Positions 10,375-64,000 of a DNA stretch of 64,000 nt are shown here, one piece after another; within the stretch, counting starts at the first letter, position 1; every line of letters begins with the position of its first letter. The position numbers and the translations under genes were made by a program. The DNA is from Christensenella sp. UBA7862. GTDB taxonomy: Bacteria > Bacillota > Clostridia > Christensenellales > UBA1242. The notes below the pieces were generated by a model, which saw nothing but the letters and a program-made list of their open reading frames with translations, was not told the DNA's origin and made no database searches. The stretch spans positions 25,796 to 89,795 of the forward strand of contig DLSM01000004.1 in the NCBI GenBank assembly GCA_002500135.1, in the 5' to 3' direction.

Positions 10375-10381
10375 TTACGCC

Positions 10382-10867: not shown

Positions 10868-11081
10868 AACAAAAACCCCTTTTAAATCTTGTAAGTAGTT
10901 TTTGTCTTTGCAAGAAAACTATGCAAACTTTTTGCCTATTTTGTAAAAAATTGTTATATAAATAAAAAATAACGATTTTTCTATCATTTATATGCAAAAT
11001 TTGGGTATAATTTTCTATCTCTCCCTATTGAAAAAAGCTTGAAAATATGCTAAAATATAGCGTAAAACAAAAGGGGCTATT

Positions 11082-11582: not shown

Positions 11583-11610
11583 CCAAACAAGATAACATAA
11601 AAAAGCAACA

Positions 11611-11649
11611 AAAAAACGATAGTGGAATAGCCCATTATCGTTTTTTGTA
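11611..11649. terminator. Bidirectional hairpin terminator between convergent genes
   Basis: AAACGATA (11614-11621) pairs with TATCGTTT (11636-11643). An A-run lies on the left and a T-run on the right. Confidence 0.5.
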
Positions 11650-11660
11650 TAAAAATTTGG

Positions 11661-12389
11661 TTAAATATCGTCAATATTTATGCTTTCAAAGTCCATTTCG
11701 TCCTTCTTTCTGCCATTTTCGTCACGCAAAAGTTCTTCGCCAAAACCTTCTTCTTCCACTTCTGGCATGTCCTCTGGCAGTTGTTTTACAAGATTTTCGA
11801 TAGCCCCCTCAACGCTTCTGTCCCTAAATCTGTCAAAGAAAATTCGTATTTTCCTTTCGTTCGTGTCTTCTTCAATGAGTTCTTTTTTTGACATTTCAAC
11901 TGGGTCAAGACTTAGGTCCGCATACAGAATTTCACAGACATATTGGCTCAAAAACCAAAAATAATTTGACAAGTTTAAGTCGTTGTAGCGAATGATTTGC
12001 CCCCAACGTGGACTCATCATTATCATATCAATGGCTGGGCTCATAAACGCCTTCATTTTTTGCGGAGCAAGTTTGCTGCCGTTTTTTGCAGCGATAATGT
12101 TCCATTCAAGTGACCTTTTGTAATTGATTGGGAAAAAATCTGCAAAACCACGTTTATAAATGTACCCCATGTAATCTTGCGATGGGATATGCCCCGAACA
12201 AGCGTAGGCGCAAATTTGTTCAATTCTGTTTAAGATAACTCGTTTATATTTGTCCTTATTATATCTGACATCTTCGCTAACTTGAGGCACCCACGCTCTG
12301 ATTCTCAAAAATAACTCCTTTTGGTCATCAAAACTCAATTTGTCAAAGGACTCCTTATTATAATAATTTTGATTTTCAAACAAATTCAT
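11661..12389 (-). CDS. Hypothetical protein (242 aa) with an acidic C-terminus; possible Sel1/TPR-like repeat
   Basis: The long ORF ends in EEEGFGEELLRDENGRKKDEMDFESINIDDI. The central stretch GYIYKRGF..NYKRSLEWNIIAAKNG is loosely Sel1-like by eye only. Confidence 0.55.
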   Translation of the reverse strand: MNLFENQNYYNKESFDKLSFDDQKELFLRIRAWVPQVSEDVRYNKDKYKRVILNRIEQICAYACSGHIPSQDYMGYIYKRGFADFFPINYKRSLEWNIIAAKNGSKLAPQKMKAFMSPAIDMIMMSPRWGQIIRYNDLNLSNYFWFLSQYVCEILYADLSLDPVEMSKKELIEEDTNERKIRIFFDRFRDRSVEGAIENLVKQLPEDMPEVEEEGFGEELLRDENGRKKDEMDFESINIDDI

Positions 12390-12542
12390 TTTCTATCTCC
12401 TTTGTTTTACAGTTTTTCTAAACTTCTCTTAAATTTCAGTTAAATTTTTTTTGTATTTTAGTTAAAATTTTCCTCTTAAACTCAAATTTAAACCATAAAA
12501 ATCTATATTTTTATGCCAAAATGATTTTTAAAAACAGATTTA

Positions 12543-15500: not shown

Positions 15501-16700
15501 GGAGCCAGACATGCAGTTTAAGCCATAATTTACATTCATGTCGTCTTGTGTTCCGCTTGAACGAGATATAATTCCGCCAACAGAACTGTCGTCAAATTTT
15601 ACAAAAACACTTTTGTTTAAGAATGATTGAAGTTGGTTAGTCGTTTTGCCGTCACTTGAAACAAGGTCAATTCCAAGGTTTAAACTTCCCGCTTCAGCAT
15701 TTGTGTTGTTAAGATACAATTTTGTTGTTTCGCCCAAGAATATGCTCTCTGTGTCGGTCGCAAGTGTCATTTGGTCAACTGTGTAATTGATAATAGTAAT
15801 ATCATGTGTTGCCTTGACTGCAGGGACAGACAATTTATCCAAGTCGGTTATCACTTCTGCATTGCTCTCGTAAGACGAACAGACATAGGCTTCAATGGTC
15901 ACATTGCCCACATTTTCACCGTTTGTGACGATTGAAATGGAGTTTGTAGCGACAAGTTGTCCGTTTATGTATGCATAAGTAAGTTCGGTTTGTGTTGATG
16001 TTGTGGCAGCCGCACCTTCCCCTATTTTGAAAGTAACAAGTGGATTATCATCATTTGAGGCAATTTTCAAGAAAATCTTTTTGTTAACAACATTCTGTCC
16101 TGCAAAAAGTGAGCCGTTGGTGATTGATGTTAGAGCGTTTGACGAGTTTGCAAAAGGCATAAGAGCGTTTGCAGGTGAAATGGCTACAATATCTGCAAGT
16201 TTTGTTTCGTTTGCTTTTGAGATTGATATTGAATGTCCTAGTTTTAGAGTTGATTGGTCAAGTTGAAGTTCTGCAGTTTTAACTGGAACATCAATTAGAA
16301 TTCTGCAAGTCGCAACTGCACTTTGATTTGAGCCTTCCCCTTCGTATCTGGCGTAGAGTTCCAAATATCCGCCAACTGGAGTTCCATTTGTCAAAATTGG
16401 AGCAATGTGGAAAGGTTCGCCGATTGTTATGTATTTTGGGTAATTTATAATTGCGTCACCATTTGGACTTTTTGACGTTTCAAGCACAAGTGTTCGCTTG
16501 TTCACATTTTCAGTTGATGTGTTGACGGTTAAAGAAAAGGGCCCAGATTTGACCACTTCCGCCTCGCTGAAGGAAATGGATTCAGCATAAACAGGCTTCT
16601 CGTTGAAACCGCCGAAAAGATATATTCCGCCAAGCACCAACCCCATGGCTGCTGCCGTGCATAAAAATGTTAACAAAATAACTTTTAACAATCTTCGCAT
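12543..16700 (-). CDS. Very large (about 1385 aa) N-terminally anchored extracellular protein, function unknown
   Basis: The ORF track gives 12543..16727. I prefer the ATG at 16700 (MRRLLKVILLTFLCTAAAMGLVLGGIYLF, a signal or anchor) because GGAG lies 8 nt upstream, while the ATG at 16727 has no SD. The rest is T/S/N-rich, nearly Cys-free, and has no LPXTG. Confidence 0.7.
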   Translation of the reverse strand: MRRLLKVILLTFLCTAAAMGLVLGGIYLFGGFNEKPVYAESISFSEAEVVKSGPFSLTVNTSTENVNKRTLVLETSKSPNGDAIINYPKYITIGEPFHIAPILTNGTPVGGYLELYARYEGEGSNQSAVATCRILIDVPVKTAELQLDQSTLKLGHSISISKANETKLADIVAISPANALMPFANSSNALTSITNGSLFAGQNVVNKKIFLKIASNDDNPLVTFKIGEGAAATTSTQTELTYAYINGQLVATNSISIVTNGENVGNVTIEAYVCSSYESNAEVITDLDKLSVPAVKATHDITIINYTVDQMTLATDTESIFLGETTKLYLNNTNAEAGSLNLGIDLVSSDGKTTNQLQSFLNKSVFVKFDDSSVGGIISRSSGTQDDMNVNYGLNCMSGSTEMDEWYFNLLVNNYQKYLDYVSNGNKIKLTVTFYDKDGSLGETQTIIQKDFYLVPKITEVDKVESTQYSLTAKSGAELSFNKDKYSIKFENNATPVGIAKNFEIVHYVKCNTPADGIIVLNGVTISSEYTQTTLNGENILILKTPNAVVTGSGTFKIYSQACYKDGQNIYFLGENCNTDIEVVEAIEYIDCYSYENDQPVNFTKFQFDENEKDSGKSVTRYLYVTTSSEQLPKLTTFVNNNKLKVNFKQISGLADETKYNSSTLGGGLKDQNKNTISFGNWEEVREGGVVVGYKISYTIGEVVTIQIDGNPIQSIFEISVYLDISPVEVTTNYKVASGNTKSLQYEIKDKILQKTILSLDSMGTSQDNPISLTATVNDAGQLTWTGGNLSNLTYGFAYEGNTPASISGYSYKFAFEEGNLPNSICSFTALEGFKGGINFTTLPYKAEGYLGKFTFLCQNANSDNSIMQWNESLGRFEQVVNPSLEAKVLYFKLTGLNLIVEANSTKISGINGSNIHILKATNTDTNYLFTLKRIEGNSQIDVLSDDFRQFLTLEAVMGSKENNDKVTFSLADNNFAVNADFIASSQVLFSFSCQNSTIKISSNGEELSSISREILGAFDVSQKESTTEITLGETAENALLAPMFVGLTKDSYLEITYGGKAILTENDPFAAGSYTLSFIRKSDETAEWLVLNNDGTITLKAINSLDVVQTSFVVRIALKSDSSVYHDFEVNIYAKSSISNEDLVVKYAGEDANPNEITAGKNNGIAYNNGISFLENSQLATLAENSKIISVTLETVYAEDGIKNFIKTTNSSSDLAFGFYSGDLATDQSVTIKFTFTFADGAGEFTISKQIIVRKNISLSLITNRKSETNPDGNDGFDYKSGEVINIFKSSTYIYTQNGSVITALDLSDYADSDTKDNHPHIKDLENLTLGTAGELVLVARFKTEEDTEDIVSASFTLVYEYNNDGLEYSQDIKFEFEIGLLSL

Positions 16701-16844
16701 ATTTTTTCTCCAAAGACATGTGTGCATATGTGCATTTATATATATTTTGTGGTTAATAACTGATTATATTCGTTTGCACAAATATACAGTATAATTATAT
16801 CCTTTATTATGGTTTAAAGTCAAACAATTCACCCTATTTAAAAC

Positions 16845-16874
16845 AGCAAAAAACCACTCGATTGAGTGGTTTTT
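16845..16874 (-). terminator. Rho-independent terminator ending the ribosomal alpha operon after rplQ
   Basis: Minus strand reads AAAACCACTC-aatc-GAGTGGTTTT followed by TTG. It starts 4 nt after the rplQ stop. Confidence 0.65.
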
Positions 16875-16877
16875 AGA

Positions 16878-17390
16878 TTAGATAAGTTCAACTATGCACA
16901 TTTGAGCAGCATCGCCACGTCTAACATTGGTTTTAAGAACTCTGGTATAGCCGCCAGCTTGTCCCTTTTCTGCGTTACGTGCAGCATATTTTGGAGCATA
17001 AACGTTGAAGATTTTTTCAATCAATGGGTGATTGACATCTTTTGTTCTTGCAACAAAATTTTCTTTTGATTCTTTTGGTTGGCGTTGTTCTTGCCTATCA
17101 AAAAGCTTTGCCATGATTGCACGTCTTGCTTGAAGTTTCTTTGGTCCATCGTTAAGAACTTCTTTTTTGACCTTAACTCCCTTTGAATCAACTTCTGTTT
17201 TAACAGCTTTAACTGTGTCTTGATAGGAATTGATTGCCAAAGTTAAGATCTTCTCTGCATAACTCTGCAATGCTTTTGCACGAGCAGAAGTTGTTTCAAC
17301 TTTTCCGTCCCACAAAAGAGAACTTGCTTGATTTCTGAGCAAACTGATTCTTTCCTTGGTAGGTCTATTTAGTTTTGCAATAGTAGCCAT
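16878..17390 (-). CDS. rplQ: 50S ribosomal protein L17 (long form, 170 aa)
   Basis: LNRPTKERISLLRNQ...ETTSARAKAL and C-terminal GGYTRVLKTNVRRGDAAQMCIVELI. It follows rpoA. It is about 50 aa longer than B. subtilis L17 because of internal K/E-rich insertions. Confidence 0.9.
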   Translation of the reverse strand: MATIAKLNRPTKERISLLRNQASSLLWDGKVETTSARAKALQSYAEKILTLAINSYQDTVKAVKTEVDSKGVKVKKEVLNDGPKKLQARRAIMAKLFDRQEQRQPKESKENFVARTKDVNHPLIEKIFNVYAPKYAARNAEKGQAGGYTRVLKTNVRRGDAAQMCIVELI

Positions 17391-17420
17391 TGTATTTCTC
17401 CTTTAAATTATCCGTTGTTT

Positions 17421-18374
17421 TTATTCTTCGTCATTTCTAAGTGACAATCCCATACTTTCAAGTTTGCTGATAACTTCTTCCAAACTCTTTAGTCCAAGAT
17501 TTCTAACTTTGAGCATATCGTCCTTTGATTTGCGAGTAAGGTCTTCAATAGTGTTGATATTTGCACGTTTCAAGCAGTTGTAACTTCTAACGGACAAATC
17601 CATATCTTCTATTGTCATTTCCATAACCTTAACAGGCTTTGCATCATCATGAGAAACAAGAATATCCATATCTCCCATGTATTCGACCATGTCAACGAAC
17701 AAATGAACGTGGTCTTCCATAATCTTTCCTGCCAAAGAAACAACTTCTTTTGCACTCATTGTGCCATTTGTTTGCACTTCAAGGGTCAATTTGTCAAAGT
17801 CGATTGATTGACCAACACGAGTGCTTTCAACTTTGTAGTTGACTGCTTTGACTGGTGTAAAGATTGAGTCAACGGCTATTGTGCCGATTGGGCTGTCTTC
17901 TTTTTTGTTCTTTTGAGCAGGGACATATCCTCTGCCACGACCAATAGTAACTTCCATATTGATTTCTGCATCGTCATCAAGTGTGCAGATTTTTAGGTCT
18001 GGAGTTAAAATTTCAACTTGGTCATTTGGTTCAAAGTCGCTTGCAAAAACTTCGCAAGGTCCAACTTTGTTAAGTCTGATAACTGTTGTAAAGTCTTCGT
18101 CAAGAACACTTGTTTTAACAGCCATTTCTTTGATGTTAAGCACAATGTCTGTTACATCTTCTGTAACTCCAGGCATGCTGGAAAATTCATGTTGAACACC
18201 ATCAATTTTGATTGCAACAGGAGCTGCACCTGGCATTGCACCAAGCAAAGTTCTTCTCATGCAGTTGCCAAGGGTTATGCCGTAGCCACATTCAAGTGGT
18301 TCAACAACAAATTTTGCAAAACTGCCGTCATTTTTTTCTTCAATCGAAACCTTTGGTTTTTCAATTTGCATCAT
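17421..18374 (-). CDS. rpoA: DNA-directed RNA polymerase subunit alpha
   Basis: N-terminal domain FVVEPLECGYGITLGNCMRR and C-terminal domain LSVRSYNCLKRANINTIEDL. 317 aa. Confidence 0.95.
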   Translation of the reverse strand: MMQIEKPKVSIEEKNDGSFAKFVVEPLECGYGITLGNCMRRTLLGAMPGAAPVAIKIDGVQHEFSSMPGVTEDVTDIVLNIKEMAVKTSVLDEDFTTVIRLNKVGPCEVFASDFEPNDQVEILTPDLKICTLDDDAEINMEVTIGRGRGYVPAQKNKKEDSPIGTIAVDSIFTPVKAVNYKVESTRVGQSIDFDKLTLEVQTNGTMSAKEVVSLAGKIMEDHVHLFVDMVEYMGDMDILVSHDDAKPVKVMEMTIEDMDLSVRSYNCLKRANINTIEDLTRKSKDDMLKVRNLGLKSLEEVISKLESMGLSLRNDEE

Positions 18375-18388
18375 GTGAATATCCCTCC

Positions 18389-19009
18389 TTACCTTGAATA
18401 CAACTCAATTATCATATGTTCTTGGATGTTCAAGTCGATGTCATCTCTCTTTGGAAGAGCAACAATTTTGCCGACCATTGTATCTGTGTTAAATTCCAAC
18501 CATTTTGGCATAACAATTTTGATACCTTTGAGTTGTTGGAATTTTTGCAAATCTTTTTTGCTTTCTTTCACTGAAATTTCATCGCCTTCCTTAACACAAT
18601 AAGAAGGAATGTTAACCACTTTTCCATTAACACAAATGTGTCCGTGGCTTACGATTTGGCGGCTTTCGCTTCTGCTATCGCCAATGCCCATTCTGTAAAT
18701 AACATTGTCAAGACGTCTTTCAAGCAAGCTGAGCATATTTTCACCAACAACACCTTTCATTCTGGTTGCTTGTTCATAATATTCTCTGAATTGTTTTTCA
18801 AGAAGTCCATAGGCTCTTTTAACTTTTTGCTTTTCTCTAAGTTGCATGCCATAATCTGTAACTTTCTTTCTTCCCATGCCATGTTGTCCAGGAACAACAG
18901 GTCTTTTTTCCATTGCGCACTTTGGAGAGATGCATCTGTCACCCTTCAAAAAGAGTTTGCAACCTTCTCGTCTGCAAAGTCTGCAATCTGCGTCTGTGTA
19001 TTTTGCCAT
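18389..19009 (-). CDS. rpsD: 30S ribosomal protein S4
   Basis: [31 protein letters not shown] (Cys4 type) plus an S4 RNA-binding domain. Confidence 0.95.
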
Positions 19010-19023
19010 TTCTCTATCTCCTC

Positions 19024-19416
19024 TTAAATCCTTCTCTTTTTAGGAGGACGGCAACCATTGTGTGGGATTGGAGAAACGTCACTAATTTTTGTAACGTTCA
19101 ATTCCGCAGCACCAAGAGCTCTAATTGCAGCCTCTCTGCCATTGCCAGGTCCTTTAACATAAACTTCAACTGATTTCAAGCCTTGCTCTTTTGCAAGTTT
19201 TGCTGCAGTTTCAACTGCTTGTTGAGCAGCAAATGGAGTGCTTTTTCTTGCACCTTTGAAGCCAAGTGAACCAGCACTTGACCAAGCCAAGGTGTTGCCA
19301 GCAAGGTCTGTAAATGTTACAAGTGTATTGTTGAATGATGCTTGAATGTGAACTGCACCTTTGTCAATGTTCTTTGTCTGTTTTTTCTTTCTAACGACTT
19401 TCTTTTTCTCTGCCAT
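19024..19416 (-). CDS. rpsK: 30S ribosomal protein S11
   Basis: [28 protein letters not shown]...[12 protein letters not shown]. Confidence 0.95.
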
Positions 19417-19434
19417 TATCCATTACCTCCTTGC

Positions 19435-19809
19435 TTATTTAGCACCTTTTTTCTTTGCAACGGTCTTCTTTGGACCTTTTCTTGTTCTTGCATTTTGTTT
19501 TGTGCTTTGTCCCCTAACTGGAAGACCTTTACGATGTCTGATGCCTCTGTAGCAACCGATTTCGGAAAGAGCCTTAATGTTAAGTGACACTTCTCTTGTG
19601 AGGTCGCCTTCAACAGTGAGGTGCTTTTCGATGTAGTTTCTAAGTTGAGCAACTTGTTCTTCGCTAAGATCTTTTACACGAATGTCAGGGCTTATTTTTG
19701 TTTCATTCAAAATTTTTTGACTTGTTTTGAGTCCAATGCCTTTGATGTAGGTAAGACCGATTTCAAGTCTTTTCTCGTTTGGTAAATCAACACCAGCAAT
19801 ACGAGCCAT
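19435..19809 (-). CDS. rpsM: 30S ribosomal protein S13
   Basis: [26 protein letters not shown]...[14 protein letters not shown]. Confidence 0.95.
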
Positions 19810-46892: not shown

Positions 46893-47016
46893 TCTTTAAA
46901 AACCCATTTTATAAAGTAATTAGACCAAAATAGGATATATGTAGTTTAATTTGCCTCAAAATATTTGTCTTTTTTATAAAAAATTGCTAAAATATTCTAC
47001 ATTATAGGAGAAAATT

Positions 47017-47748
47017 ATGTTTGGTTCAGCCTATTGGCAATATTATTTGATGGGAATTATACTTCTTCCCGGTTTGTTGTTTGCAATGTACGCACAGTGG
47101 AAAGTGTCGTCAACTTATGCAAAGTATAGAAAAGTTATGAGCCAAAAACAAGTGTGTGCTGGTGACTTTGTAAGAAGCCTTCTTCCAACGTGCGGGCTAA
47201 CGCATTTGACGGTCAAAAAAATCTCTGGCGAACTTACCGACCATTATGACCCACGAAGCGAAGAAATTTGCTTATCTGACGGGGTGTATGATTCGCAATC
47301 TGTTGCAAGCCTTGGCATTGCTTGTCACGAACTTGGACACGCACTTCAAAAGAAAGAAAAATATGCACCTTATCAAATAAGACGCATATTGGTGCCAGTT
47401 ACAAACATCGCTTCCACCCTTCTTTGGCCACTTGTTGTCATTGGACTTATCTTCAACATTGCAGCCACTGACGGCAGTCTTATTGGAAACATCTTCCTTT
47501 GGAGCGGAATTGGCTTTTTTGGTTTTGCAGTGCTTTTTAACTTGGCAACTCTGCCCGTAGAATTTGACGCTTCCAGAAGGTCACTTAAAATTCTTGAATC
47601 GACAGGAACATTGAACGAAGAAGAACTTGACCAAACCCGAGAAGTTCTTCGTGCCGCTGCCCTGACATATGTCGCAGCCCTTGTCGTGTCCATTCTCAAC
47701 TTCCTCCGCTTCCTTATCGTCATCCTAAGCAAGCGAGATAGAAAATAA
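47017..47748 (+). CDS. YugP-family membrane zinc metallopeptidase (Zn_peptidase_2)
   Basis: YAQWKVSSTYAKY...ISGELTDHYDPRS...SVASLGIACHELGHALQ carries the HExxH motif and the family N-terminus. C-terminal transmembrane segments are present. Confidence 0.8.
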   Translation: MFGSAYWQYYLMGIILLPGLLFAMYAQWKVSSTYAKYRKVMSQKQVCAGDFVRSLLPTCGLTHLTVKKISGELTDHYDPRSEEICLSDGVYDSQSVASLGIACHELGHALQKKEKYAPYQIRRILVPVTNIASTLLWPLVVIGLIFNIAATDGSLIGNIFLWSGIGFFGFAVLFNLATLPVEFDASRRSLKILESTGTLNEEELDQTREVLRAAALTYVAALVVSILNFLRFLIVILSKRDRK

Positions 47749-47844
47749 AACAGAAATTCTTGTAAACATAAAAATCATAAAAAAATATAAAAACAAAAAC
47801 ACCACAAAGGGCTAACAGTTTTGAAACTAGCAGAATAACAAAAT

Positions 47845-47877
47845 AGGAACAATGCAATGCACTGTTCCTTTTATTTT
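47845..47877. terminator. Bidirectional hairpin terminator shared by the convergent peptidase and helicase genes
   Basis: AGGAACA (47845-47851) pairs with TGTTCCT (47863-47869), followed by TTTTATTTT. An A-rich run on the left gives a U-tract for the minus-strand transcript. Confidence 0.6.
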
Positions 47878-47952
47878 GGTTTTAATAATTATATAATCTG
47901 CTTATATCTAGTACTATTTTATGTTTTTACATATTAGTAAAATCAATTAAAT

Positions 47953-50900
47953 TTAATCACTTTTCTTTACATTACCAATAAATTGTTTTAAAAATTTTGC
48001 TGCAAGATTTCTATCTAACATTTCGTGTATTTTTTGATTCTCATAACTTCTCAAACAATTATAACATGATGGGTTACAATTACAACTTTCCATATTATTT
48101 AATGCAGATTTCATAATTTTATATAATACCATTCCATCTTCAGTAACCAATCTTCTTGAGTGTCCTGCACCGCCCGGCACAGCATCATAAATTATTATTG
48201 AATAATTTAATTTTCCCTGTATAATTTTTAAAGAAAGACAGGCTTTTATATCTTTTCTTTCAATATTCATACCTTTTGAAATTGCATATAGTATTGCATA
48301 CATGGTCGAAATCATAGTGTTGTAATCAGACGTATTGCAATCAAAACTTATTTTTACGACATCGGTATTAAATGTGTGATGAAGTGAATATCGATACAAT
48401 TCTTGACATTCGCATTTAAATTGACCATAAGAACTTTCGTGCTTGTTCGTCGTATAAATCTTATGCTTTTTATGTTTTTTATCTTTATTTGCTTCTTTAT
48501 CATCTACAATGTTTTCATCTTCTGCATATGCAAAACCACATCTAGGACAAACATAAAAATTATTTGAGGATTTAACCATCAAAGAATCATTGGTAGTGGA
48601 CTCTATTGTAACTTTAATATCATTATATAAGAAAGAGCGTTTTTCTATTGTTTTTGATTCAGTATTACCTATATAATAATCATCAGATTTATAATTTTTT
48701 TCTTGTCTAGATAATGGGACCTCTTTTGCCTCTCTTTCTGTCATAAATCCGGAACGTGGTTCAATGCTTTCATTGTAATCACGGGGAAAAAGCAAATTTC
48801 CACAAGAAGAACATTTAACCCCTGTTTCTGGGATAGGAACAACACTATAATTAACACACTGACATTCTGGATTATTGCAAATTCCAACATATGCGGTATA
48901 CCATTCTTTATGATTATTGCCAATATTTGTTTTCTTTATATATCGACTGGTATATAGTTTTCCATCTGCAACAATCTCTGATGACGGGGCATATTCTGCA
49001 ATCGCTATAGACAAATCCCTACTAAGCCTTAATTTATTTAAATTTCCAGCGGTTGTATTTTGCTCTAATTCCACTGTGTCTACAGGAAACCCATATCTAG
49101 GCAAAATATTACCTCTTGCTAAGAAATCAATAAGTTTATTATTTTTGTAATTTTTTAATTTTCTTTCACATCTTGTTGCTTTTTCCAAATCATCTTTTTT
49201 GTATTTTTTTATGGACTCTTCAAATTCTTTTATATTATTCTCATATTCTCGTAAAAGTAGTGTAAAGCTTCCCTCTTCACCAATAAAAGAATCTAGCCAT
49301 TGAAAGGTTTGTAAACCAAGTCTGTTGTGTAATCCATTTACATCTGGGATAGACCGTTTCAACATATCGGTAAGTCTATTAGGTTTGCTTTTTAACCAGT
49401 CAATAAATAATTGATAATTTTTCTCATTTATAAATTTATCCGAATTGTTGTGATCATACAAATCGGGATGATCGGCAAAAAACATACTTAAAGAAATTGC
49501 ATATATATGCCTTCTTACAATCTTTTCATTATCAACCTTGAATAATGGTGGTAATATTATACCACTAATCATTTTGTTTGGTTCTCTAAAAAATGACAAA
49601 TCATGGGAACTTAATTTAGCAAATGTTAGTGCATAAGCAGCCGCATTCACACTTCTTCCTGCTCTACCTGCTCTTTGTGCATAATTGGATGGCAAAGGTG
49701 GAACATCTCTTAAAAATACCGTTTCAAGGTCACCTACATCGACACCCATTTCAAAAGTTGTTGAACATGATAAAGCATTAATCTCTTTTTTAATAAACTC
49801 CTCTTGATATGTAGCACTTTCTTTTTTGCTTAATTGTGCTGTATGTTCTTTAATGAACAAAGGAGACATTTTATCGCTAAAATAAAGTTTAGCAAAGTGA
49901 TTATCTTCTCTCAGTTTTTGAGGCTCTATCGCTATCACTTGTTCTTCACATTTAACCGTAGTACATTTACCAACCATATTATAAGGGGAAACTTTACCGC
50001 ATTTTGTACACTTATACCATTTTATTGTAGGATCATTTGCTATCTTAACTTGTAAATATTTCGCAGGTAATACGTAGGTACCATCCTTATTCTTATCAAC
50101 CATACAATACTCATTACCACATTCAGGTTTAGTTAAATAATCGAAAAACTGATCCAAAAACTCAATTGCACAATTATTATCTATTTTCAAAAAATGAGTT
50201 ACATAATACAGTTTATTGGTTCTAAAGTAATCATTTTCTTTTCCGTTCTTATGTTTTGGCATCCAAGACGAAATGGTAGTTTTAGGAGAAACTTGTTCTT
50301 CTTTAGAAATAAACCTTTGAGATGGAGTATAAAATATATACTCTCTATCATTATCATCAATATCGGTATCAGAATCTGTACAGACTGCACCTGTTTTAAT
50401 TATTTCAAAAATAAGTAAATTTAACAAATTTTTAACACAATCATTATCTGTATCGTATTTTTGCGATATAGCATTTATAATTTCATCATTAATACCAAGA
50501 TAGGTAAATTGTAATACGCCTAATGACATTAAAGATGTAGATGAATTGAAACGAGCTAATTCGTTTAACATTGCCACCCAAGCATTTTTATTGCTAACTG
50601 CAGTTAAATTACTTATATCGCTATTAGATTGAGCAAAACTTCTTTTGTTAGAAAAATAAGCAGTTAATTTTTTAACGAAATCAGATATAGTAAATGAATT
50701 TTCAATTATTAAGTTTGAATTTTCTTTAATTATTTGACAGATTCCACGACGACGTAAAAATTCATTATAACTTTTGCTCAAATAACATGCAAACTTAGCA
50801 GCTTCTTGTCTACTATCAGAAAATGCCAAAAATTGTCTTCCCGTCTTTTTTGCTTTCTTTTTATTAGCAAGGACTGCGTTGGTAAATATATTAGTAGATG

Positions 50901-57537: not shown

Positions 57538-59685
57538 CTAATAATTTACAATCAACACTTCTTCTGTGATTGATTGCCTATTTTTTGTTTGGTAATTTGA
57601 ATTAGCATAAGTATAGTTCAAAGGTATTACACGATATTTTCCTTGATTACTTTGTATCCATTCCAACAAAATTTTGTTTTCTTTGCCTTTGCTTCGTAAT
57701 ACATTCGAAAGTGCAAATCTAATGCCTTTTTCATTCAAATCGTCAAGATATTTCAATAAGTCTTTTTCGTCTTGTTCAGTCCAGCCATCTTGCTCATTGT
57801 ATGTTGCACATGTTATTAAGTATGGGGGATCTGCGTAAACGAAAGTGTTGGCATTCCAATCGTCCATTGATAATTTTTTAAAATCGTAATCCAAAAATGT
57901 ATAATCTCCACTTTTTAATCTATCAATGAATAATGATAATTTTTCTCTCATTTTATCATTAAAATCTCTTTTCCCAACTGGAAGATTAAATTCTCCCTTT
58001 TTATTAAATCTAATTTGGTTATTAAAAGAATATACAATCAAGGTGTAAAGTTGGATATAGTAATAGTAATCATAAGTCTTTCTATTATTAAAATCATTTC
58101 TTAGTTTTAAATAATGTTCATTATTATAAGCCCCCAATCCTTCGGAACTTGTGCATCCATAATACTCATAACCATTTTTAGCAGTGTTAGAAAGGTCATA
58201 TTTTTCTATTGTTTTATCGATAAAATCAAATGTGGATTGTTTATCTAAGTTTCTAAATGTTCCAAAAATGTATCTTATTAAATCATTTTTGTCATTAAAT
58301 ATAACTTTATTGCAAGGCGCATTAATTCCGACATTACCACCACCACTAAATAAATCTACAAATGTTTCAATATCTTTTGGGAAATGAGGAAATATTTGAG
58401 GAAGAAGTTTATATTTACCGCCAGTATAATTCAAAGGTGATTGAATAAGATCTTTTTTACCATAATCATAACATTCACACAAAAACAATCTTTCTTCATT
58501 TTCTTGTATATCAGATTTCCCAGCGTTAAAAGCTTTGTAGTCTTGTGAAAAAACAGATACTTTACCTTTTGCTGATAATATAGTCATGATATCCTCATCA
58601 CTAATTCTTGCATTAGATCTATCGTTTCCTTTGTTGCCCATATTGTTATAGGATAGAAGTATATATTTTGCTTTAATGTTTTTAATTAAATTAGCAAATG
58701 CTTGTGTAGCATTGGAAGTGCAGTATTCACTTTTTAAATTGGTTCTATCCATTTTTTTAGCCACACCGAACACCTCAGGCTTTTCCCATTTTGCAATATT
58801 TTCTAACAGATGGTAGGCATCACAATACTGTCTAGAATTGTATGGAGGATCAATATACACTAAATCTGCTTCAATATTTTTCACCAACTCATTCGAATCC
58901 GTATTAAAACATTGATTGTTTTCGTTATTTTCATTACTAGCTAAAGGAACCGACAATTCCAATTTCTTTTCAAATTTTCCATTTTTTATATAAGCATCAT
59001 AATGTCCACAAGTGTTTGCAATTTTATCCATAGCATATAATAAGGAAGTAATAAGAATAGCTTTTTCTCGAAAATTTATATTACCACTCTTATATAAAGT
59101 TTCTATATCTTCTCTTATATAACCAATTTTCTTACAATCCTGTTTACTGAAATATGTATCTCCAAAATTTACAGATACATAATTATCTTCATTAACAGTT
59201 GTATGGTTGTATAAACTAATTATATTAATAATTTTATCTTGAGAATATTTTTCAGGGCTAAACCATGCGATATGGCATAAATAATTAAAATACATTATAT
59301 CGTTTGTTATCAATTTTTTATCAATAAAAGCTGAAGATACCGAACCTGTACCTGCAAAAATATCGGCGACCGTTGAAATATTCGTACAATTTTCATTTAC
59401 AACTTTTTTAATAAAATCCAATAATTTATACTTATTTCCTAAATATCTTCTATTATTTATTAATGTAGTTTTGTATGTCGGATTTAAATCTTCTTCTGAT
59501 AATTTAATTTTATTTTTGTCTTCAAGTATATTTTTTAATTTATTAAAAGTTTCCAAATCCCATATATATCTACCAGTAGGAGAAGTTTTAATTGAAATCA
59601 AATTATTTTTTAACACATAATAAAATGTTGAATATTTTATATCCAATTCTTCCATTATTTGAGTTGAAGTATAAGTTTTTAACAT
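57538..59685 (-). CDS. Fused tandem N6-adenine DNA methyltransferase (two D12/Dam-class domains) with an N-terminal HTH-like segment
   Basis: Domain 1 has YLGNKYKLL, FAGTGSVS and VYIDPPYNSRQY. Domain 2 has YTGGKYKLLPQI, FSGGGNVG and VYADPPYLITCATY. The N-terminal ~55 aa (YTSTQIMEELDIKYSTFYYVLKNNLI...GRYIWDLETF) look like a MerR/excisionase-type HTH. 715 aa. Confidence 0.85.
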   Translation of the reverse strand: MLKTYTSTQIMEELDIKYSTFYYVLKNNLISIKTSPTGRYIWDLETFNKLKNILEDKNKIKLSEEDLNPTYKTTLINNRRYLGNKYKLLDFIKKVVNENCTNISTVADIFAGTGSVSSAFIDKKLITNDIMYFNYLCHIAWFSPEKYSQDKIINIISLYNHTTVNEDNYVSVNFGDTYFSKQDCKKIGYIREDIETLYKSGNINFREKAILITSLLYAMDKIANTCGHYDAYIKNGKFEKKLELSVPLASNENNENNQCFNTDSNELVKNIEADLVYIDPPYNSRQYCDAYHLLENIAKWEKPEVFGVAKKMDRTNLKSEYCTSNATQAFANLIKNIKAKYILLSYNNMGNKGNDRSNARISDEDIMTILSAKGKVSVFSQDYKAFNAGKSDIQENEERLFLCECYDYGKKDLIQSPLNYTGGKYKLLPQIFPHFPKDIETFVDLFSGGGNVGINAPCNKVIFNDKNDLIRYIFGTFRNLDKQSTFDFIDKTIEKYDLSNTAKNGYEYYGCTSSEGLGAYNNEHYLKLRNDFNNRKTYDYYYYIQLYTLIVYSFNNQIRFNKKGEFNLPVGKRDFNDKMREKLSLFIDRLKSGDYTFLDYDFKKLSMDDWNANTFVYADPPYLITCATYNEQDGWTEQDEKDLLKYLDDLNEKGIRFALSNVLRSKGKENKILLEWIQSNQGKYRVIPLNYTYANSNYQTKNRQSITEEVLIVNY

Positions 59686-59728
59686 TAATCAATCTCCTTA
59701 TGCAACTATTTTATTATACATATTAGAC

Positions 59729-59757
59729 ATTATAGCACATAAATGGCACAAAATCAA
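59729..59757 (-). promoter_or_regulatory. Strong SigA-type promoter upstream of the methylase gene
   Basis: Minus strand reads TTGATT (59757-59752), a 17-nt spacer, then TGcTATAAT (extended -10; TATAAT at 59734-59729). It lies about 45 nt upstream of the ATG at 59685. Confidence 0.6.
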
Positions 59758-59840
59758 AGGAATATGCATTTTTTATAATAAATTCTGGATGCACTTTAGA
59801 AATAGCATCCTTAATGTAATTTAATAAACTGGCATTTAAA

Positions 59841-59898
59841 CGTGTGCTTGTCTTGATACAAGTCGGTGTCGCTACGCTCCACCGAAGACAAGCACACG
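59841..59898. repeat. Perfect 14-bp inverted repeat forming a compound hairpin
   Basis: CGTGTGCTTGTCTT (59841-59854) pairs with AAGACAAGCACACG (59885-59898). Inside the 30-nt loop, CGGTG (59864-59868) pairs with CACCG (59880-59884). The element is locally GC-rich within AT-rich DNA. Confidence 0.6.
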
Positions 59899-59984
59899 AA
59901 CACAAAGCAATTAAACAATATAAACTAAATGAACTACAAGAATATAAAACAACTAAACAAAAACACATTTCTCTTGAACAAACA

Positions 59985-60052
59985 TTGCCGAGTGAAAAAG
60001 AGGTTTGCGCGCGAGGCTATACGCAAAACCTCTTTTTTTTACCACTCGGCAA
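59985..60052. terminator. Long imperfect hairpin containing a rho-independent terminator (readable on both strands)
   Basis: Inner stem GAGGTTTGCG / CGCAAAACCTC is followed by T8 on the plus strand. Outer arms TTGCCGAGTG (59985-59994) and CACTCGGCAA (60043-60052) pair. The minus-strand reading also ends in CTTTTTC. Confidence 0.6.
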
Positions 60053-60329
60053 ATTGTATTGTAATTTGTTCTTAAATTTCAATATTGTTGTTTCAAGACA
60101 TTATTCAAATACATAACTATGAGCATTGTTAATGTTCTAGTTATTCCAAAATCATTAAAGTATATTTTCTTTATTTAATCTCCTTTACTCGCTTTTGGTG
60201 TCTTTTGTAGCATAGTTTTCCCCTAAGTCAAGGGAAACAAATATTGTTTATGTAATCTACTAGATTGAACATTCAGTCTAGTATTTTTTTTATTGCAATA
60301 ATATTCCAACACAATATTTCTTTCTTCTT

Positions 60330-60357
60330 CCTTGACTTCTTGTATTAAAACTTTAAG
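60330..60357 (+). promoter_or_regulatory. Repeated promoter-like motif, copy 1 (CCTTGAC-N8-TTAAAACTTTAAG), 68 nt upstream of the sigma-like gene
   Basis: ccttgacttcttgtattaaaactttaag. A near-identical motif occurs at 62734-62760. An inverted copy of AAGTCAAGG lies at 60226-60234. Confidence 0.45.
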
Positions 60358-60424
60358 GGTTATGTTTTGTATCCAAACTCTGCTCCAACGACACTTGCCA
60401 AAAGGCGGATAAAGGAGAAAATAT

Positions 60425-61054
60425 ATGAACAAAAGAAAAAATGAAATACTAGAAAATAATGTTGTAATTAGTTTAGACAACATTGAAAAAATCTCAAAAG
60501 TTATTGCACTGGCTAGTCTAAGCAATTTTGAAAAGTATGCTTATTCAAGCTCAAAAAGAATAGAGTTTTTACACAAGCAATTACAAAAAGATATTCGTCA
60601 TCACAGTGAATTAGATTGCTATTCAGACGCTTACGATTTAGTTCAAGAAGCGAGTTTATTTTTACTAAAATTTGTAGGTCAAAGACTTGGAGATAACTGT
60701 ACTTTTATTAAATCTACTGCAAAAGCTCCACAAACAATTTCAATTAGAATGGCTTGTTTCAAAACATTGTTTGCATATCTAAGAAAAGAAATGAAAAACG
60801 GAAACTCTGAAAACGAAGAATTACTTGAGTTTATTCCTGCAAAAGATTGTTTTGGAGAAGAAAAATCAAATTACACAAAAGTAAATAAGATTATTAAATG
60901 TTTAGTAACCAACAAATTAGAAAGTCAAATTTTAGAGTATTACTACAATGGTGTTGAAGTAAAACTTATTGCCGAGTTTTTAGGAGTTAGCACAGACATT
61001 GTTTACAAACGCAGAAGAAAATTCAAAGATAGATATTTAGCATATTGTATATAA
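60425..61054 (+). CDS. Sigma-70-family-like regulator (regions 2 and 4 only), mobile-element type
   Basis: YDLVQEASLFLLKF is region 2-like. The C-terminal LESQILEYYYNGVEVKLIAEFLGVSTDIVYKRRRKFKDRY is a region 4.2-like HTH. AAAGGAG lies upstream of the ATG. It resembles the small sigma-like proteins of Tn916-type elements. Confidence 0.55.
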   Translation: MNKRKNEILENNVVISLDNIEKISKVIALASLSNFEKYAYSSSKRIEFLHKQLQKDIRHHSELDCYSDAYDLVQEASLFLLKFVGQRLGDNCTFIKSTAKAPQTISIRMACFKTLFAYLRKEMKNGNSENEELLEFIPAKDCFGEEKSNYTKVNKIIKCLVTNKLESQILEYYYNGVEVKLIAEFLGVSTDIVYKRRRKFKDRYLAYCI

Positions 61055-61060
61055 AAGTAT

Positions 61061-61090
61061 AGGCTCACATCAAAAATGTGGGCTTTTTAT
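61061..61090 (+). terminator. Rho-independent terminator after the sigma-like gene
   Basis: GGCTCACAT-caaaa-ATGTGGGCT (one G:U pair) followed by TTTTT. Confidence 0.65.
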
Positions 61091-61667
61091 GTGCGAATTT
61101 TGAATTTGACCTTAACTTTTCTATTTTTCGTGGCTTATATATGTAAGGTGTTACAAAAATGATACAAAATTGAAACAAGAACCGAACAAACCTGATACAC
61201 AAATGAGATACCAATGTTTTTAAGTTAGTGCTATTGTCTAATTGTATCACAAAAATTTAGTATTTTTTTGACTATATTAGTTTAGTTTTCGTTTATACAA
61301 ACTACTATTTTGTTTAGTTTTTATATGGATAAAGTATGGGTGTAGTTTCTTGTATTTTTTAAAAATTTAGATATGCTTTTTGTGTGAGGTAATCAAAAAA
61401 TCTAAAGTTTTTTTACAACTAAATACAAAAACTATACCAGAAAATACAATAATGTTACCAGTAATGTCATTCAAAACTTAAATTTTTTGTGATACCTTTA
61501 CAATGAATTAAAAATAGACAACGCAAAAATGACAAAACCGAGAAGATAGTTTATTGGTTTGCTTTTAGCCAAAATTAAAAGCCAGTGGTTGCATTTTATG
61601 GGCGTAGAAAAGAAAACTTTTCTATGTCCTTTTTAATTCCAAATTTTCAAAAAAGGAGTTAAAAATT

Positions 61668-61802
61668 ATGCAAAAACTAGAAATTGAATTTGAAAACGAA
61701 CTAGATTTAACCTTACTAGACAATGAATTTTTTGTTGCAATGTTGAATCAGATTATGCTTTTCAAAAAATGCGAGGTGCAATATGGACTATCCCAAAACT
61801 AA
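61668..61802 (+). CDS. Possible 44-aa ORF overlapping the Rep start
   Basis: My own reading gives AAGGAG 10 nt upstream of ATG 61668 and the translation MQKLEIEFENELDLTLLDNEFFVAMLNQIMLFKKCEVQYGLSQN. It is below the track cutoff and has no homology evidence. Confidence 0.3.
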   Translation: MQKLEIEFENELDLTLLDNEFFVAMLNQIMLFKKCEVQYGLSQN

Positions 61803-62664
61803 AGTATATTTTGATGGTAGTCATTTTATTGGAATACCACCTGAAAAACAAATATGGAAGAAACGAAAGAATACAAAACCAAAACAAAAAGATGAAATAC
61901 AAGAAAAAGTTAAAGAGTTATACAAAGCCGAAACTGGAACAAAGAAAGAAAAAACTGAAAAAGTTATTGAAAAAATAAATGAAGAAATTAAAGATGAAGA
62001 AAAAGTGAAAGAGATTGTAAAAGCAACTTTAGAAAAAGAAAAAAGGAATAAAATTGTTAGACTTACGAGATTGTATAGAAAAATTGGTTTGCAACAATGG
62101 ACACACTTTTGCACTTTTACTTACGATAGCTTCAAACTAACCGAAGAAGAATTCAGAAAGAAATTACTTACTTGTTTAAGACATCTATCTCATAGAAAAA
62201 ACTGGAAATACATTGGAGTGTTTGAACGAAGTCCAAAACTAGAAAGACTACATTTTCATGGAATATTTGTAATTGCTGAAATGGTTGGCGAGATTATTGA
62301 AACAAAAGATTATTCCACTAAAACACATCAAATGCAGATTACTCACCAAAACACATTCTTTTTAGAAAGATTTGGAAGAAACGATTTCAAGGAGATAATC
62401 AACAATGTTGGTGTTAATGATGCAGTTAATTATATTATGAAATACATTCGAAAAACTGGTGAAAAAGTTATTTATTCAAAGCACTTACAAACATATTTTG
62501 TTACAGATATTTTAGACGATGATGTTGTTTGCAGAATTGGTCAAGAAGATAGAAAAATATTGCTTTTTGATGATTTCAAATGTTTAGATTTTGAAACTGG
62601 CGAAGTTTTAGGACAGCCTAGCAAAAACAAAGATTTAATAAATAAACTACCCAAAGCTTATTGA
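61783..62664 (+). CDS. HUH rolling-circle replication initiator (Rep) with a two-tyrosine motif
   Basis: Motif I FCTFTY, motif II HFHGIFVI (HUH), motif III NYIMKYIRK (Y-x3-Y). Compare phiX174 gpA YVAKYVNK. The N-terminal ~90 aa are K/E-rich. Confidence 0.7.
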   Translation: MDYPKTKVYFDGSHFIGIPPEKQIWKKRKNTKPKQKDEIQEKVKELYKAETGTKKEKTEKVIEKINEEIKDEEKVKEIVKATLEKEKRNKIVRLTRLYRKIGLQQWTHFCTFTYDSFKLTEEEFRKKLLTCLRHLSHRKNWKYIGVFERSPKLERLHFHGIFVIAEMVGEIIETKDYSTKTHQMQITHQNTFFLERFGRNDFKEIINNVGVNDAVNYIMKYIRKTGEKVIYSKHLQTYFVTDILDDDVVCRIGQEDRKILLFDDFKCLDFETGEVLGQPSKNKDLINKLPKAY

Positions 62665-62666
62665 TT

Positions 62667-62808
62667 GTCTTTCGGTTACAGAGCATAAACGAAAACTCTT
62701 TCTTGTCAAGGGTAAAATGTATTGATTCTCAACCCTTGACAAGAAAATTAAAACTTTAAGAATTAAGAAAACAATCCCTTTTCGTTTCTTTTCGCTCTGT
62801 CGAAAGAC
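62667..62808. repeat. Nested inverted repeats between Rep and the recombinase gene
   Basis: Three arm pairs, from outside in:
- Outer arms: GTCTTTCGgttACAGAGC (62667-62684) pairs with GCTCTGTCGAAAGAC (62794-62808).
- Middle arms: AAACGAAAA (62687-62695) pairs with TTTTCGTTT (62779-62787).
- Inner arms, a perfect 14 bp: TTTCTTGTCAAGGG (62699-62712) pairs with CCCTTGACAAGAAA (62733-62746). Confidence 0.7.
62734..62760 (+). promoter_or_regulatory. Repeated promoter-like motif, copy 2 (CCTTGAC-N7-TTAAAACTTTAAG), 83 nt upstream of the recombinase gene
   Basis: ccttgacaagaaaattaaaactttaag. It shares CCTTGAC and TTAAAACTTTAAG with copy 1 at 60330-60357. The TTGACA element lies within the right arm of the inner palindrome. 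Confidence 0.45.
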
Positions 62809-62842
62809 AAAAATAAAACTTAATAAAAGGAGAATAAATAAA

Positions 62843-64000
62843 GTGAAAACAGCAGTAATATATGCAAGATATTCCAGCACTAACCAAACTGAGCAAAGTA
62901 TTGAAGGTCAAGTTCATGTTTGCGAAGATTATGCTAAAAAGCACGATATAATTATTGTAGATTCTTACATAGACCGAGCAATTTCTGGGACAACTGACAA
63001 CAGAGAATCCTTTCAAAAAATGTTAAAAGATAGCAACAATAAAAAGTGGGACTATGTGTTAGTTTACAAACTAGATAGATTTGCAAGAAATAAGTTTGAG
63101 TCTGCAATCCATAGAAAGCACTTGAAAGATAACGGAATAAAACTTTTATCCGCTATGGAAAATATTCCAGAAACACCTGAAGGAGTATTACTTGAATCTT
63201 TACTTGAAGGTATGAACCAATACTTCAGTGAAGAACTTGCTCAAAAAGTTAGTCGTGGGCTTCACGAATCTAGAATGAAAGGACATATAATCGGTTCAGT
63301 TCCTTATGGTTACATTAAAGAAAATAAAATGCTAAAAGTGAACGAGGAAGAAAAACAAATCTTAACTAGAATGTTTGAAGATTATGCAAGTGGTAAAACA
63401 ATTTTGCAAATCTCAAGAGATTTTGAAAAAGAGAATATTACTAATAAAGGTAAGCAGTTTATTCCAGAAACAATAAGATATTATCTAAAAAATGAATATT
63501 ACACAGGTGTTTGCAGAATTAACAACAAAGTTTACGATAAAATATACCCACAAATAATCTCAAATGAACTATTTGAAAAAGTAAAAACAAAGTTAGATGC
63601 AAATAAATATGGTTGTAGAAAAGATAACCACGAGATTTTTAGATTAAAAGACAAGATATATTGTGGTAATTGCAATCGCAAAATGTATCCAGTGTCTGCA
63701 ATATCTTCAAATGGCAACACCATTCGCTATTACAAATGTATAACTACTAAAAAGAAAAATTGTTTAACTGGAATAATAGACAAAAAGTTTATTGAAAACA
63801 TAATAGATAAATTCTTAATATCTCAATTTAACATTCCTAAAAACTTAAATGAAATTTCAGAAAAAATATTTGAAATACATAAAAAAAGAGTTGGAACAAA
63901 CAATGCTCTCAACTCTCTAAAAAGTAATTTACAAAAAACTAATACTTCAATTTCAAATATTATGTCTGCTATTGAAAAAGGAATACTTACAGATACCACA
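62843..64000 (+). CDS. Large serine recombinase (resolvase/invertase catalytic domain plus recombinase and zinc-ribbon domains), C-terminus beyond the window end
   Basis: Absent from the track because the frame is open at the window end. GTG start at 62843 with AAGGAG 10 nt upstream. My own translation reads VKTAVIYARYSSTNQTEQSIEGQ...ISGTTDNRESFQKML...LVYKLDRFARN (catalytic Ser/Arg motifs), then GSVPYGY..., then YCGNCNRKMY...YYKC (zinc ribbon). Confidence 0.9.
   Translation, partial: MKTAVIYARYSSTNQTEQSIEGQVHVCEDYAKKHDIIIVDSYIDRAISGTTDNRESFQKMLKDSNNKKWDYVLVYKLDRFARNKFESAIHRKHLKDNGIKLLSAMENIPETPEGVLLESLLEGMNQYFSEELAQKVSRGLHESRMKGHIIGSVPYGYIKENKMLKVNEEEKQILTRMFEDYASGKTILQISRDFEKENITNKGKQFIPETIRYYLKNEYYTGVCRINNKVYDKIYPQIISNELFEKVKTKLDANKYGCRKDNHEIFRLKDKIYCGNCNRKMYPVSAISSNGNTIRYYKCITTKKKNCLTGIIDKKFIENIIDKFLISQFNIPKNLNEISEKIFEIHKKRVGTNNALNSLKSNLQKTNTSISNIMSAIEKGILTDTT

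Follow-up and report, generated by a model that had tools for sequence, protein, structure and literature searches.

Do four adjacent genes for a DNA methylase, an endonuclease, a 912-aa protein and a large helicase make up one methylase-guided defence system, or are they two systems that have come to lie side by side? The question is raised by a 64,000-nucleotide stretch of DNA from Christensenella sp. UBA7862 (assembly GCA_002500135.1, contig DLSM01000004.1, positions 25,796 to 89,795 of the forward strand; the whole stretch is called the window here). In an earlier note, made from the letters alone, the four genes were placed on the minus strand, which is borne out by intact open reading frames (ORFs) at exactly the same coordinates, and a composite system was considered, in which an N6-adenine (m6A) methylase marks self DNA and the mark is read by both the endonuclease and the helicase pair, as in DISARM or Druantia type II. 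The shared strand, the one strong promoter with no internal terminator, and the existence of methylase-containing relatives of DruE systems, namely DISARM, ARMADA and Druantia II (PMC12458937), speak for such a composite, and a four-gene methylase-guided helicase system, had it held, would be a new composite defence. We report here that the functional methylase-guided reading is not supported and that the locus is an ordinary defence-island juxtaposition. We consider it likely that two self-sufficient defence modules, an AlwI-family restriction-modification (R-M) system and a Druantia III-B-like pair of a partner protein and a DruE helicase, lie head to tail as cargo of a serine-recombinase/Rep element of about 16.7 kb, and that they were joined by cassette exchange. 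The part that departs from known systems is only the non-canonical, DruH-like partner family to which the 912-aa protein belongs.

The association between the pair and a methylase was examined in both directions. Homologues of the methylase (M) or the endonuclease (R) of the window were present within 10 kb of the pair in none of 28 genome loci of the partner family, which came from gut-type Bacillota metagenome-assembled genomes (MAGs) and were taken with 10-kb flanks. A screen for methylase motifs ([DNS]PP[YFWH] or the C5-methylase PCQ) picked out one of 340 flanking ORFs, and no methylase adjoined the pair in 27 of the 28 loci. The single candidate, in locus L007, lies beside a gene of the type I specificity-subunit family and is probably a type I hsdM. 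Among 117 nearest-neighbour ORFs, a tally of the 25 most frequent Pfam families (2-6 members each) included no DNA methyltransferase; it showed NERD proteins, helicases, helix-turn-helix (HTH) proteins and toxin-antitoxin genes. For the reverse comparison we used 66 metagenome loci carrying relatives of the endonuclease (34-62% identity), 33 of which have at least 3 kb of downstream sequence. A methylase adjoins the endonuclease in 51 of these 66 AlwI-type loci, and neither DruE nor the 912-aa family was found in the flanks of any (0/66). Thus, a recurrent pairing of the helicase pair with AlwI-type R-M, which the earlier note had proposed to look for by comparative genomics, was found in neither direction, and homologous pairs usually occur without an adjacent methylase, the very outcome that the note had named as speaking against its idea. 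Studies on a related system point the same way: Druantia III-A is methylation-independent, being non-toxic and fully active in methylation-free E. coli (10.64898/2026.05.13.724758), which argues directly against the need for a self mark.

The closest relative of the locus explains how the two modules came together. The same mobile element is carried by a different genome of 1.3 Mb (locus L001), and blastn revealed 98% identity between its partner/DruE region and positions 55501-47807 of the window, while its Rep/backbone sequences matched 62931-61511 at 92% and 61054-59824 at 87%. Between these conserved parts, in place of the R-M genes, the slot of L001 holds 1.4 kb with a gene for an AAA_14/DUF4143 ATPase (L001:2852-4302). 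A further locus, L034, whose partner protein is 75% identical, also holds an AAA_14/DUF4143 gene in the slot (L034:1181-2477), and the 91-nt spacer preceding the partner gene, which contains the palindrome TATATTAATATA, is nearly identical in L001 and L034. The right-hand junction of the R-M cassette lies 12 nt upstream of the start codon of the 912-aa gene; upstream of position -12 the sequence is not conserved with the sister element, and no shared druH promoter is visible. These data show that the R-M module entered the element by cassette exchange at a variable slot directly upstream of the pair, and that the locus consists of two intact modules, each of which is conserved independently elsewhere. 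The L001 genome yielded no methylase homologue at E values up to 1e-5 (the genome is a MAG and possibly incomplete). Since the L001 pair is 98% identical and sits on the same backbone, a virtually identical helicase pair exists without this methylase. An m6A methylase as self mark for both modules is thus contradicted by the comparative data, namely by the 27 pair loci without a methylase, by the 66 R-M loci without the pair and by the sister element.

The 1601-aa protein is identified from its domains and motifs as DruE, a helicase of superfamily 2 (SF2) and of the YprA/MrfA family, of the compact III-B type. It matched the PADLOC models DruE1 (4.2e-173) and DruE3 (4e-172) far better than DrmA (1.2e-13), and Pfam recognised DEAD, Helicase_C and MZB/DUF1998 domains, the MZB domain at 1487-1569. 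Helicase motifs I, II and VI (GSGKT, DEAH and QRAGRAGR) and a cysteine cluster can be read from the sequence. The protein also matched PDB 9tu7 (9e-79), which was deposited beside DruH (9tud) as a DEAD/DEAH box helicase of 2108 aa and which we take to be DruE. The C-terminus of the window's protein lies 32 residues past the MZB domain, and its alignment with the DruE3 model breaks off at position 1675 of 2055; therefore, the protein has no PLD or other nuclease domain. The tandem PLD domains that mark the DruE C-terminus in Druantia III-A are absent, which fits the published description of III-B. As DruE1 scored as well as DruE3, type I Druantia was considered and ruled out, there being no equivalents of DruA-D by PADLOC.

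The gene for the partner and druE form a conserved two-gene operon; this and a DruE-matching SF2 helicase carrying DEAD, Helicase_C and C-terminal MZB/DUF1998 domains are both expected of Druantia III. In the window the two genes overlap by 8 nt. A DruE homologue directly follows the partner gene in 23 of the 24 loci with enough downstream sequence, and the junctions range from -8 to +4 nt when likely start codons are used (longest-ORF calls overlap by 89-239 nt in three loci). A credible ORF upstream of the pair was called in 24 loci, and in 21 of these it is separated from the pair by at least 77 nt, the longest gap being 912 nt; some loci have this neighbour on the opposite strand. Both features suggest that a promoter of its own is normal for the pair, and a gap of 219 nt, as in the window, is typical of the family.

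Some members of the family differ in their surroundings. L009 (L009:1249-19031), and L008 likewise, carries a 915-aa family member that is not followed by DruE and lies among other helicase genes: its immediate upstream neighbour in L009, across a gap of 1 nt, is a 522-aa NERD-helicase, a 1503-aa AAA_11/AAA_12 helicase lies downstream, and a 1106-aa DEAD/Helicase_C protein and a 610-aa protein without a domain match are also encoded there. DruE is longer (1725 aa) in L011, L013 and L014 (about 8628-19620) and is followed by a conserved ORF of 569-571 aa, while conserved ORFs of 223 aa and 212 aa precede the pair in L013, L014 and L022, the L022 contig ending inside the partner gene. These additional ORFs of L011, L013, L014 and L022 may represent a larger variant of the system. 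A related pair was also seen on the Clostridium butyricum plasmid pNPD4_2 (L033:3783-11668), with a 1069-aa partner, which belongs to the partner family of the window (hhalign, 98%), and a DruE of 1559 aa. The annotation names the two proteins only 'hypothetical protein' and 'DEAD/DEAH box helicase'; coming from a cultured organism, the pair could be an experimentally tractable representative.

DruH-type proteins are built from an N-terminal helical domain, about six domains of the Ig-like type and, at the C-terminus, a helical domain. In the AlphaFold2 model (pLDDT 87.8), the 912-aa protein has a helical N-terminal domain (residues 1-246) followed by a chain of Ig-like beta-sandwiches up to the C-terminus, and no C-terminal helical domain. 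A Foldseek search of the PDB with this model returned only Ig/FN3 receptor ectodomain arrays; the 50 matches listed did not include a DruH chain, although 9tud is possibly not in the library. By sequence, the protein matched nothing in Pfam, NCBIfam or PADLOC. The PADLOC DruH model gave no match on it and 32 relatives even at E values up to 10, PADLOC gave none on eight remote members of the family at E up to 0.001, and the DruH model PDLC00038 gave none in the window's own genome. No similarity was detected by hhalign between the family of the 912-aa protein and a single DruH sequence, and a 43-sequence profile of the partner family aligned with a 22-sequence DruH profile at a probability of only 2% (E 0.023). 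The partner-family profile did not find DruH 9tud among PDB sequences at E up to 10, while the DruH profile found it at E = 0. PF27205 and PF27201, which mark canonical DruH homologues and were read from precomputed annotations, occur in none of the 48 partner homologues listed. The DruH model also gave no match in 401 genomes sampled from the host phylum, a weak result since the named control genomes gave none at that threshold either, and tblastn of the 912-aa protein against plasmids found no match. The protein was accordingly rejected as a canonical DruH by PADLOC, hhalign, profile search and Pfam annotation alike; by its gene position and its predicted general build we call it a DruH-like partner, which by sequence is not demonstrably a member of the DruH family.

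This partner family is large, comprising 48 clusters of close relatives in a protein search and 579 clusters at 50% identity (E up to 0.001) in a profile search of 1.84 billion representatives. Neither Pfam nor PADLOC has a model for it and current DruH models miss it, so present tools under-call compact Druantia III-like systems of gut Bacillota. Additional domains occur in some members, namely a UvrD/GajB-like helicase at the C-terminus (P0139, 1606 aa), an EVE domain at the N-terminus (P0103), DUF3427 (P0079) or three RNA-polymerase alpha-CTD repeats (P0136). Such domain combinations suggest a DNA-sensing module that pairs with helicases.

Comparison with known systems places the pair nearest to Druantia III-B, which has been described as a compact combination of DruH and a PLD-less DruE (10.64898/2026.05.13.724758). 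In Mycolicibacterium smegmatis, a PLD-less DruH-DruE pair (1132-aa DruH, 1667-aa DruE) has been validated and defends alone (PMC13316683). Like that pair (MSMEG_1253/1254), the one in the window consists of two overlapping genes of a kind that stands alone without a methylase (PMC13316683; 10.64898/2026.05.13.724758), with a large partner (about 900-1130 aa) encoded directly upstream of a DruE of about 1600-1670 aa that has DEAD, Helicase_C and MZB/DUF1998 domains but lacks PLD domains. In gene order, overlap and size, and in having a PLD-less DruE, the pair thus corresponds to compact Druantia III-B. However, the partner here, at 912 aa, is about 200 aa shorter, lacks a C-terminal helical domain in the model and has no detectable sequence similarity to DruH. 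With Druantia III-A of E. coli and P. aeruginosa the pair shares the DruE helicase core, the order of partner and then DruE, and a partner with a predicted N-terminal helical domain and Ig-like array, for which structure searches give only Ig/FN3 receptors, as is reported for DruH (10.64898/2026.05.13.724313). It differs from III-A in the absence of tandem PLD domains, in a partner that is not demonstrably homologous to DruH, and in its host, a small low-GC Bacillota genome.

Druantia II (DruM-DruF-DruG-DruE) and DISARM (DrmA/B/C with DrmMI/MII) also have a YprA-family DUF1998 helicase on the strand of a DNA methylase gene, but here the methylase matches only type II R-M models, it is not conserved beside the pair, and there are no equivalents of DruF, DruG, DrmC or DrmD/E. 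Druantia II was rejected as PADLOC found no DruM, DruF or DruG and the 912-aa protein matched none of its models. DISARM was rejected on the poor DrmA score relative to DruE, the absence of a PLD protein and the lack of any DrmM match. The likeness to DISARM and Druantia II that had been drawn for this locus is therefore not upheld, and the locus should not be catalogued as a system like either.

The upstream module has the features of an ordinary R-M system. The methylase matched PF02086 (1.4e-67) in two stretches, corresponding to two fused domains of the D12 class, and FxGxG and DPPY motifs are present in both; it also matched TIGR00571 and, over positions 7-715 of 722, the PADLOC model MTase_II (1.4e-266). 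Its only PADLOC matches were MTase_II, orphan-methylase, PD-Lambda-5_B and mad1, the last an HTH-type model that aligned (2e-4) with residues 3-52, N-terminal to the D12 domains; DruM, DrmMI, DrmMII and PglX gave no match. It is, as predicted from these domains, a type II DNA adenine methylase with two domains as expected for an asymmetric type IIS site, adjoining its endonuclease and fit to modify both strands of such a site. The endonuclease matched PF09491 (RE_AlwI) over its full length (1.1e-65, positions 2-441 of 441) and the PADLOC model 'Type II nicking endonuclease' (1.1e-97). Its closest solved structure is N.BspD6I (2ewf; 2.8e-27), and the catalytic block D-x-E ... EVTT ... E-x-PV-RH is conserved. 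The enzyme is thus a type IIS endonuclease of the AlwI/PleI/MlyI/N.BstNBI family, and could be a double-strand cutter or a nickase. Full-length RE_AlwI, the N.BspD6I catalytic block and two fused D12 domains are shared with the AlwI, PleI, MlyI, N.BstNBI and N.BspD6I systems, and so are the order of M and then R and their tight spacing, as seen in the 51 related loci. The module differs from AlwI-type systems in the extra N-terminal HTH on the methylase and from BspD6I in having no gene for a BspD6I-type small subunit near R.

The positions of the genes, signals and element parts are given in Table 1.

Table 1. Genes, regulatory signals and parts of the mobile element, in window coordinates.
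Feature	Position	Strand	Basis or remark
Methylase (M) gene	57538-59685	minus	intact ORF, 715 aa
AlwI-family endonuclease (R) gene	55709-57529	minus	intact ORF, 606 aa
Gene for DruH-like partner	52751-55489	minus	intact ORF, 912 aa
druE helicase gene	47953-52758	minus	intact ORF, 1601 aa
R-M cassette, 4.3 kb (promoter, M, R and 207 nt of 3' flank)	55502-59823	minus	blastn breakpoints 59824 and 55501
Promoter TTGATT-17-TGcTATAAT (sigma-70-type, extended TG)	59729-59757	minus	inside the swapped cassette
Intergenic gap between R and partner gene, 219 nt	55490-55708	minus	no terminator; two 9/12 promoter-like sites; no Rfam match
Intrinsic terminator 3' of druE	47845-47869	minus	11-bp stem and U-rich tail
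Strong hairpin between A8 and U5	59987-60050		part of the conserved element backbone
Imperfect inverted repeat, core GGATGC-N12-GCATCC	59769-59828		directly upstream of the -35 hexamer
Integrated mobile element, low GC	47807-64000 and beyond		GC drop, Pfam, homology to L001 ending at 47807
Rep gene	61783-62664		Pfam
Large serine recombinase gene	from 62843 to about 350 nt beyond the window		Pfam

About 12 kb of the element is defence cargo, and its end would lie roughly 350-650 nt past the window. Its GC content is about 28%, whereas that of the flanks is about 36%; a short distance past the recombinase gene, GC increases to 0.36-0.41 (L037:1-660).

Whether the four genes share a transcript is a separate matter from whether they share a function. 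The promoter that had been reported upstream of the methylase was recovered by our promoter scan, in which the matches listed include every 10-of-12 match. It lies 43 nt upstream of the methylase start codon and is one of only two sites with 10/12 matches and an extended TG in 14.5 kb on both strands. To call it the only consensus promoter, as had been done, was too strong, since the gap before the partner gene holds two minus-strand sites with 9/12 matches (ATCACA-16-TATTAT at 55709-55682 and TTGTCA-16-CATTAT at 55559-55532). In this AT-rich DNA, matches as good as these are about as frequent as chance predicts (98 found, 88 expected), so that promoter prediction neither shows nor excludes a start inside the gap; the absence of a terminator from the gap, claimed together with the absence of a promoter, did hold. 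The best local hairpin in the gap reaches -7.9 kcal/mol (z 0.0), and the gap as a whole folds no better than shuffled sequence (z -0.49). The reported spacing of 8 nt between the methylase stop and the endonuclease ATG, with the Shine-Dalgarno sequence inside the methylase 3' end, was likewise found, AGGAGG overlapping the stop codon, and the hairpin 3' of the helicase gene is indeed a good terminator (-17.8 kcal/mol, z -5.5).

At the other end of the cargo, the hairpin upstream of the methylase promoter is stronger still (-34.7 kcal/mol, z -6.4; 0 of 200 shuffles folded as well), and its region is common to the sister element L001 at 87% identity. It is likely a bidirectional intrinsic terminator between the backbone genes of the element and the defence cargo, which would shield the R-M promoter from upstream transcription. 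No hairpin comparable to these two was found between them, and Rfam gave only chance-level matches on 47000-64000. A search for the Rho gene found none in the host genome (1.19 Mb, 97% complete), while it found Rho in nine of the named control genomes; factor-dependent termination in the untranslated gap is therefore unlikely. Since the two strong hairpins enclose no terminator, a Rho gene is absent and the layout recurs in the closest relative, read-through is plausible, and some transcripts from the methylase promoter would, on balance, run through to druE. An additional weak promoter inside the gap is quite possible. The locus thus has what the sequence of an operon would lead one to expect, namely a common strand, a 5' promoter, no internal terminator and a 3' terminator, except a four-gene neighbourhood conserved across genomes (0/28 pair loci, 0/66 R-M loci). 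The four-gene arrangement was seen only in identical copies of this element variant, and the gap sequence, compared with all fetched loci and the whole genome, occurs only in such copies. In L001, an 11/12 promoter precedes the slot gene, no terminator follows, and only weak promoter-like sites lie before the pair. The same layout with an ATPase gene supports the idea of co-transcription, but shows that the arrangement is not specific to a methylase; read-through from whichever gene occupies the slot may be the expression route of the pair in this element lineage. The locus offers a clean natural case, on a small mobile element, of cassette exchange at a slot that lies 12 nt upstream of a defence operon and in which the upstream cassette appears to bring the only strong promoter, in a host without Rho.

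Two self-sufficient modules would then operate as follows. The R-M promoter would drive the methylase, one D12 domain of which would serve each strand of the asymmetric site, and the endonuclease would be translationally coupled to it through the 8-nt spacing. The HTH of the methylase probably autoregulates its own promoter; together with the inverted repeat upstream of the -35 hexamer, whose 29-nt arms are 72% complementary, it suggests autoregulation, and the repeat may be the operator for this HTH. The endonuclease would cut or nick unmethylated DNA. By analogy with DruH-DruE, DruE may load at exposed single-stranded DNA (ssDNA) or duplex junctions of replicating phage DNA and unwind 3'-to-5', while the partner may bind, trim or otherwise process ssDNA. 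The outcome, as the literature on Druantia III suggests, would be a block of phage DNA circularisation and replication for which host methylation is not needed. RNA from the methylase promoter would read into the druH-like gene and druE, possibly beside a weak gap promoter. Such co-expression would be due to the layout of the slot and does not indicate any use of the methyl mark by the helicase pair.

Several points weigh against this account. The pair loci are related to one another, so that the counts are non-independent samples, and the MAGs are incomplete, so that a methylase may have been missed elsewhere in those genomes. A gap of 219 nt is long for an operon, the weak promoter-like sites in it could mean that the pair is transcribed mainly on its own, and the read-through is inferred from signals in the DNA. 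The mechanism of DruH, moreover, is transferred to the 912-aa protein by architecture and gene position only.

Of the alternatives, the one that survives best concerns transcription. The R-M transcript might end or decay in the gap and the pair be transcribed from a gap promoter of its own, for instance the site at 55559-55532. A gap length usual for the family, neighbours on the opposite strand that make an own promoter normal, and the two 9/12 sites agree with this, but the gap has no terminator-like hairpin, the genome lacks Rho, the sites are at chance density, and the divergence from the sister element upstream of -12 leaves no shared druH promoter visible. We regard two transcription units as possible, though somewhat short of an even chance; they would leave the functional conclusion unchanged.

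A second alternative, that the modules act in synergy without a shared self mark, is unlikely. Here nicks or ends made by the endonuclease on unmethylated phage DNA would feed the nuclease-less DruE and its partner, and selection would favour co-transcription. DruE does require ssDNA, overhang or forked substrates (10.64898/2026.05.12.722862; 10.64898/2026.05.13.724313), the phage families sensitive to Druantia III-A overlap known R-M targets (10.64898/2026.05.13.724758), and neighbouring systems have been documented to act in synergy, Druantia III doing so with Zorya II and ARMADA II (PMC12458937; 10.64898/2026.05.12.724681). The DruE of the window has no nuclease domain of its own, both the best PADLOC model and the closest solved structure of the endonuclease are nicking enzymes, and read-through is probable. 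Nevertheless, the adjacency is confined to one element variant, with identical copies in a few metagenomes, and is not recurrent in either set of loci; defence genes cluster on mobile elements for non-mechanistic reasons, and the sequence does not separate a nickase from a cutter. Less likely again is a version that combines one transcript with action in series: the endonuclease, perhaps a natural nickase, would open unmethylated phage DNA, DruE and the partner would load there, the methyl mark would gate Druantia indirectly, and the slot would exchange 'substrate-generating' or sensor modules, R-M in this element and an AAA_14/DUF4143 ATPase in its sisters. In any case, the locus makes a simple example on which to test synergy of R-M with a nuclease-less Druantia.

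The composite with a common m6A self mark is very improbable, given a pair and an R-M module that recur apart, a 98%-identical pair in a genome without any methylase homologue, a methylase that fits ordinary type II models, the lack of DruF, DruG and DrmC matches and the methylation independence of Druantia III-A.

The recognition site of the endonuclease was sought in the short words that the host genome avoids. Strongly avoided words (observed/expected) were GAGAC (0.10), CGACG (0.13), GATC (0.17) and GGACC (0.41), followed by GGATG/CATCC (0.43), GAATC (0.46) and GAGTC/GACTC (0.56). As the depletion extends to GATC and GANTC in general, it singles out neither GGATC nor GAGTC as the site of R. 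The avoided words, none of which is assignable to the AlwI-family enzyme, point to a history of several R-M specificities in this host.

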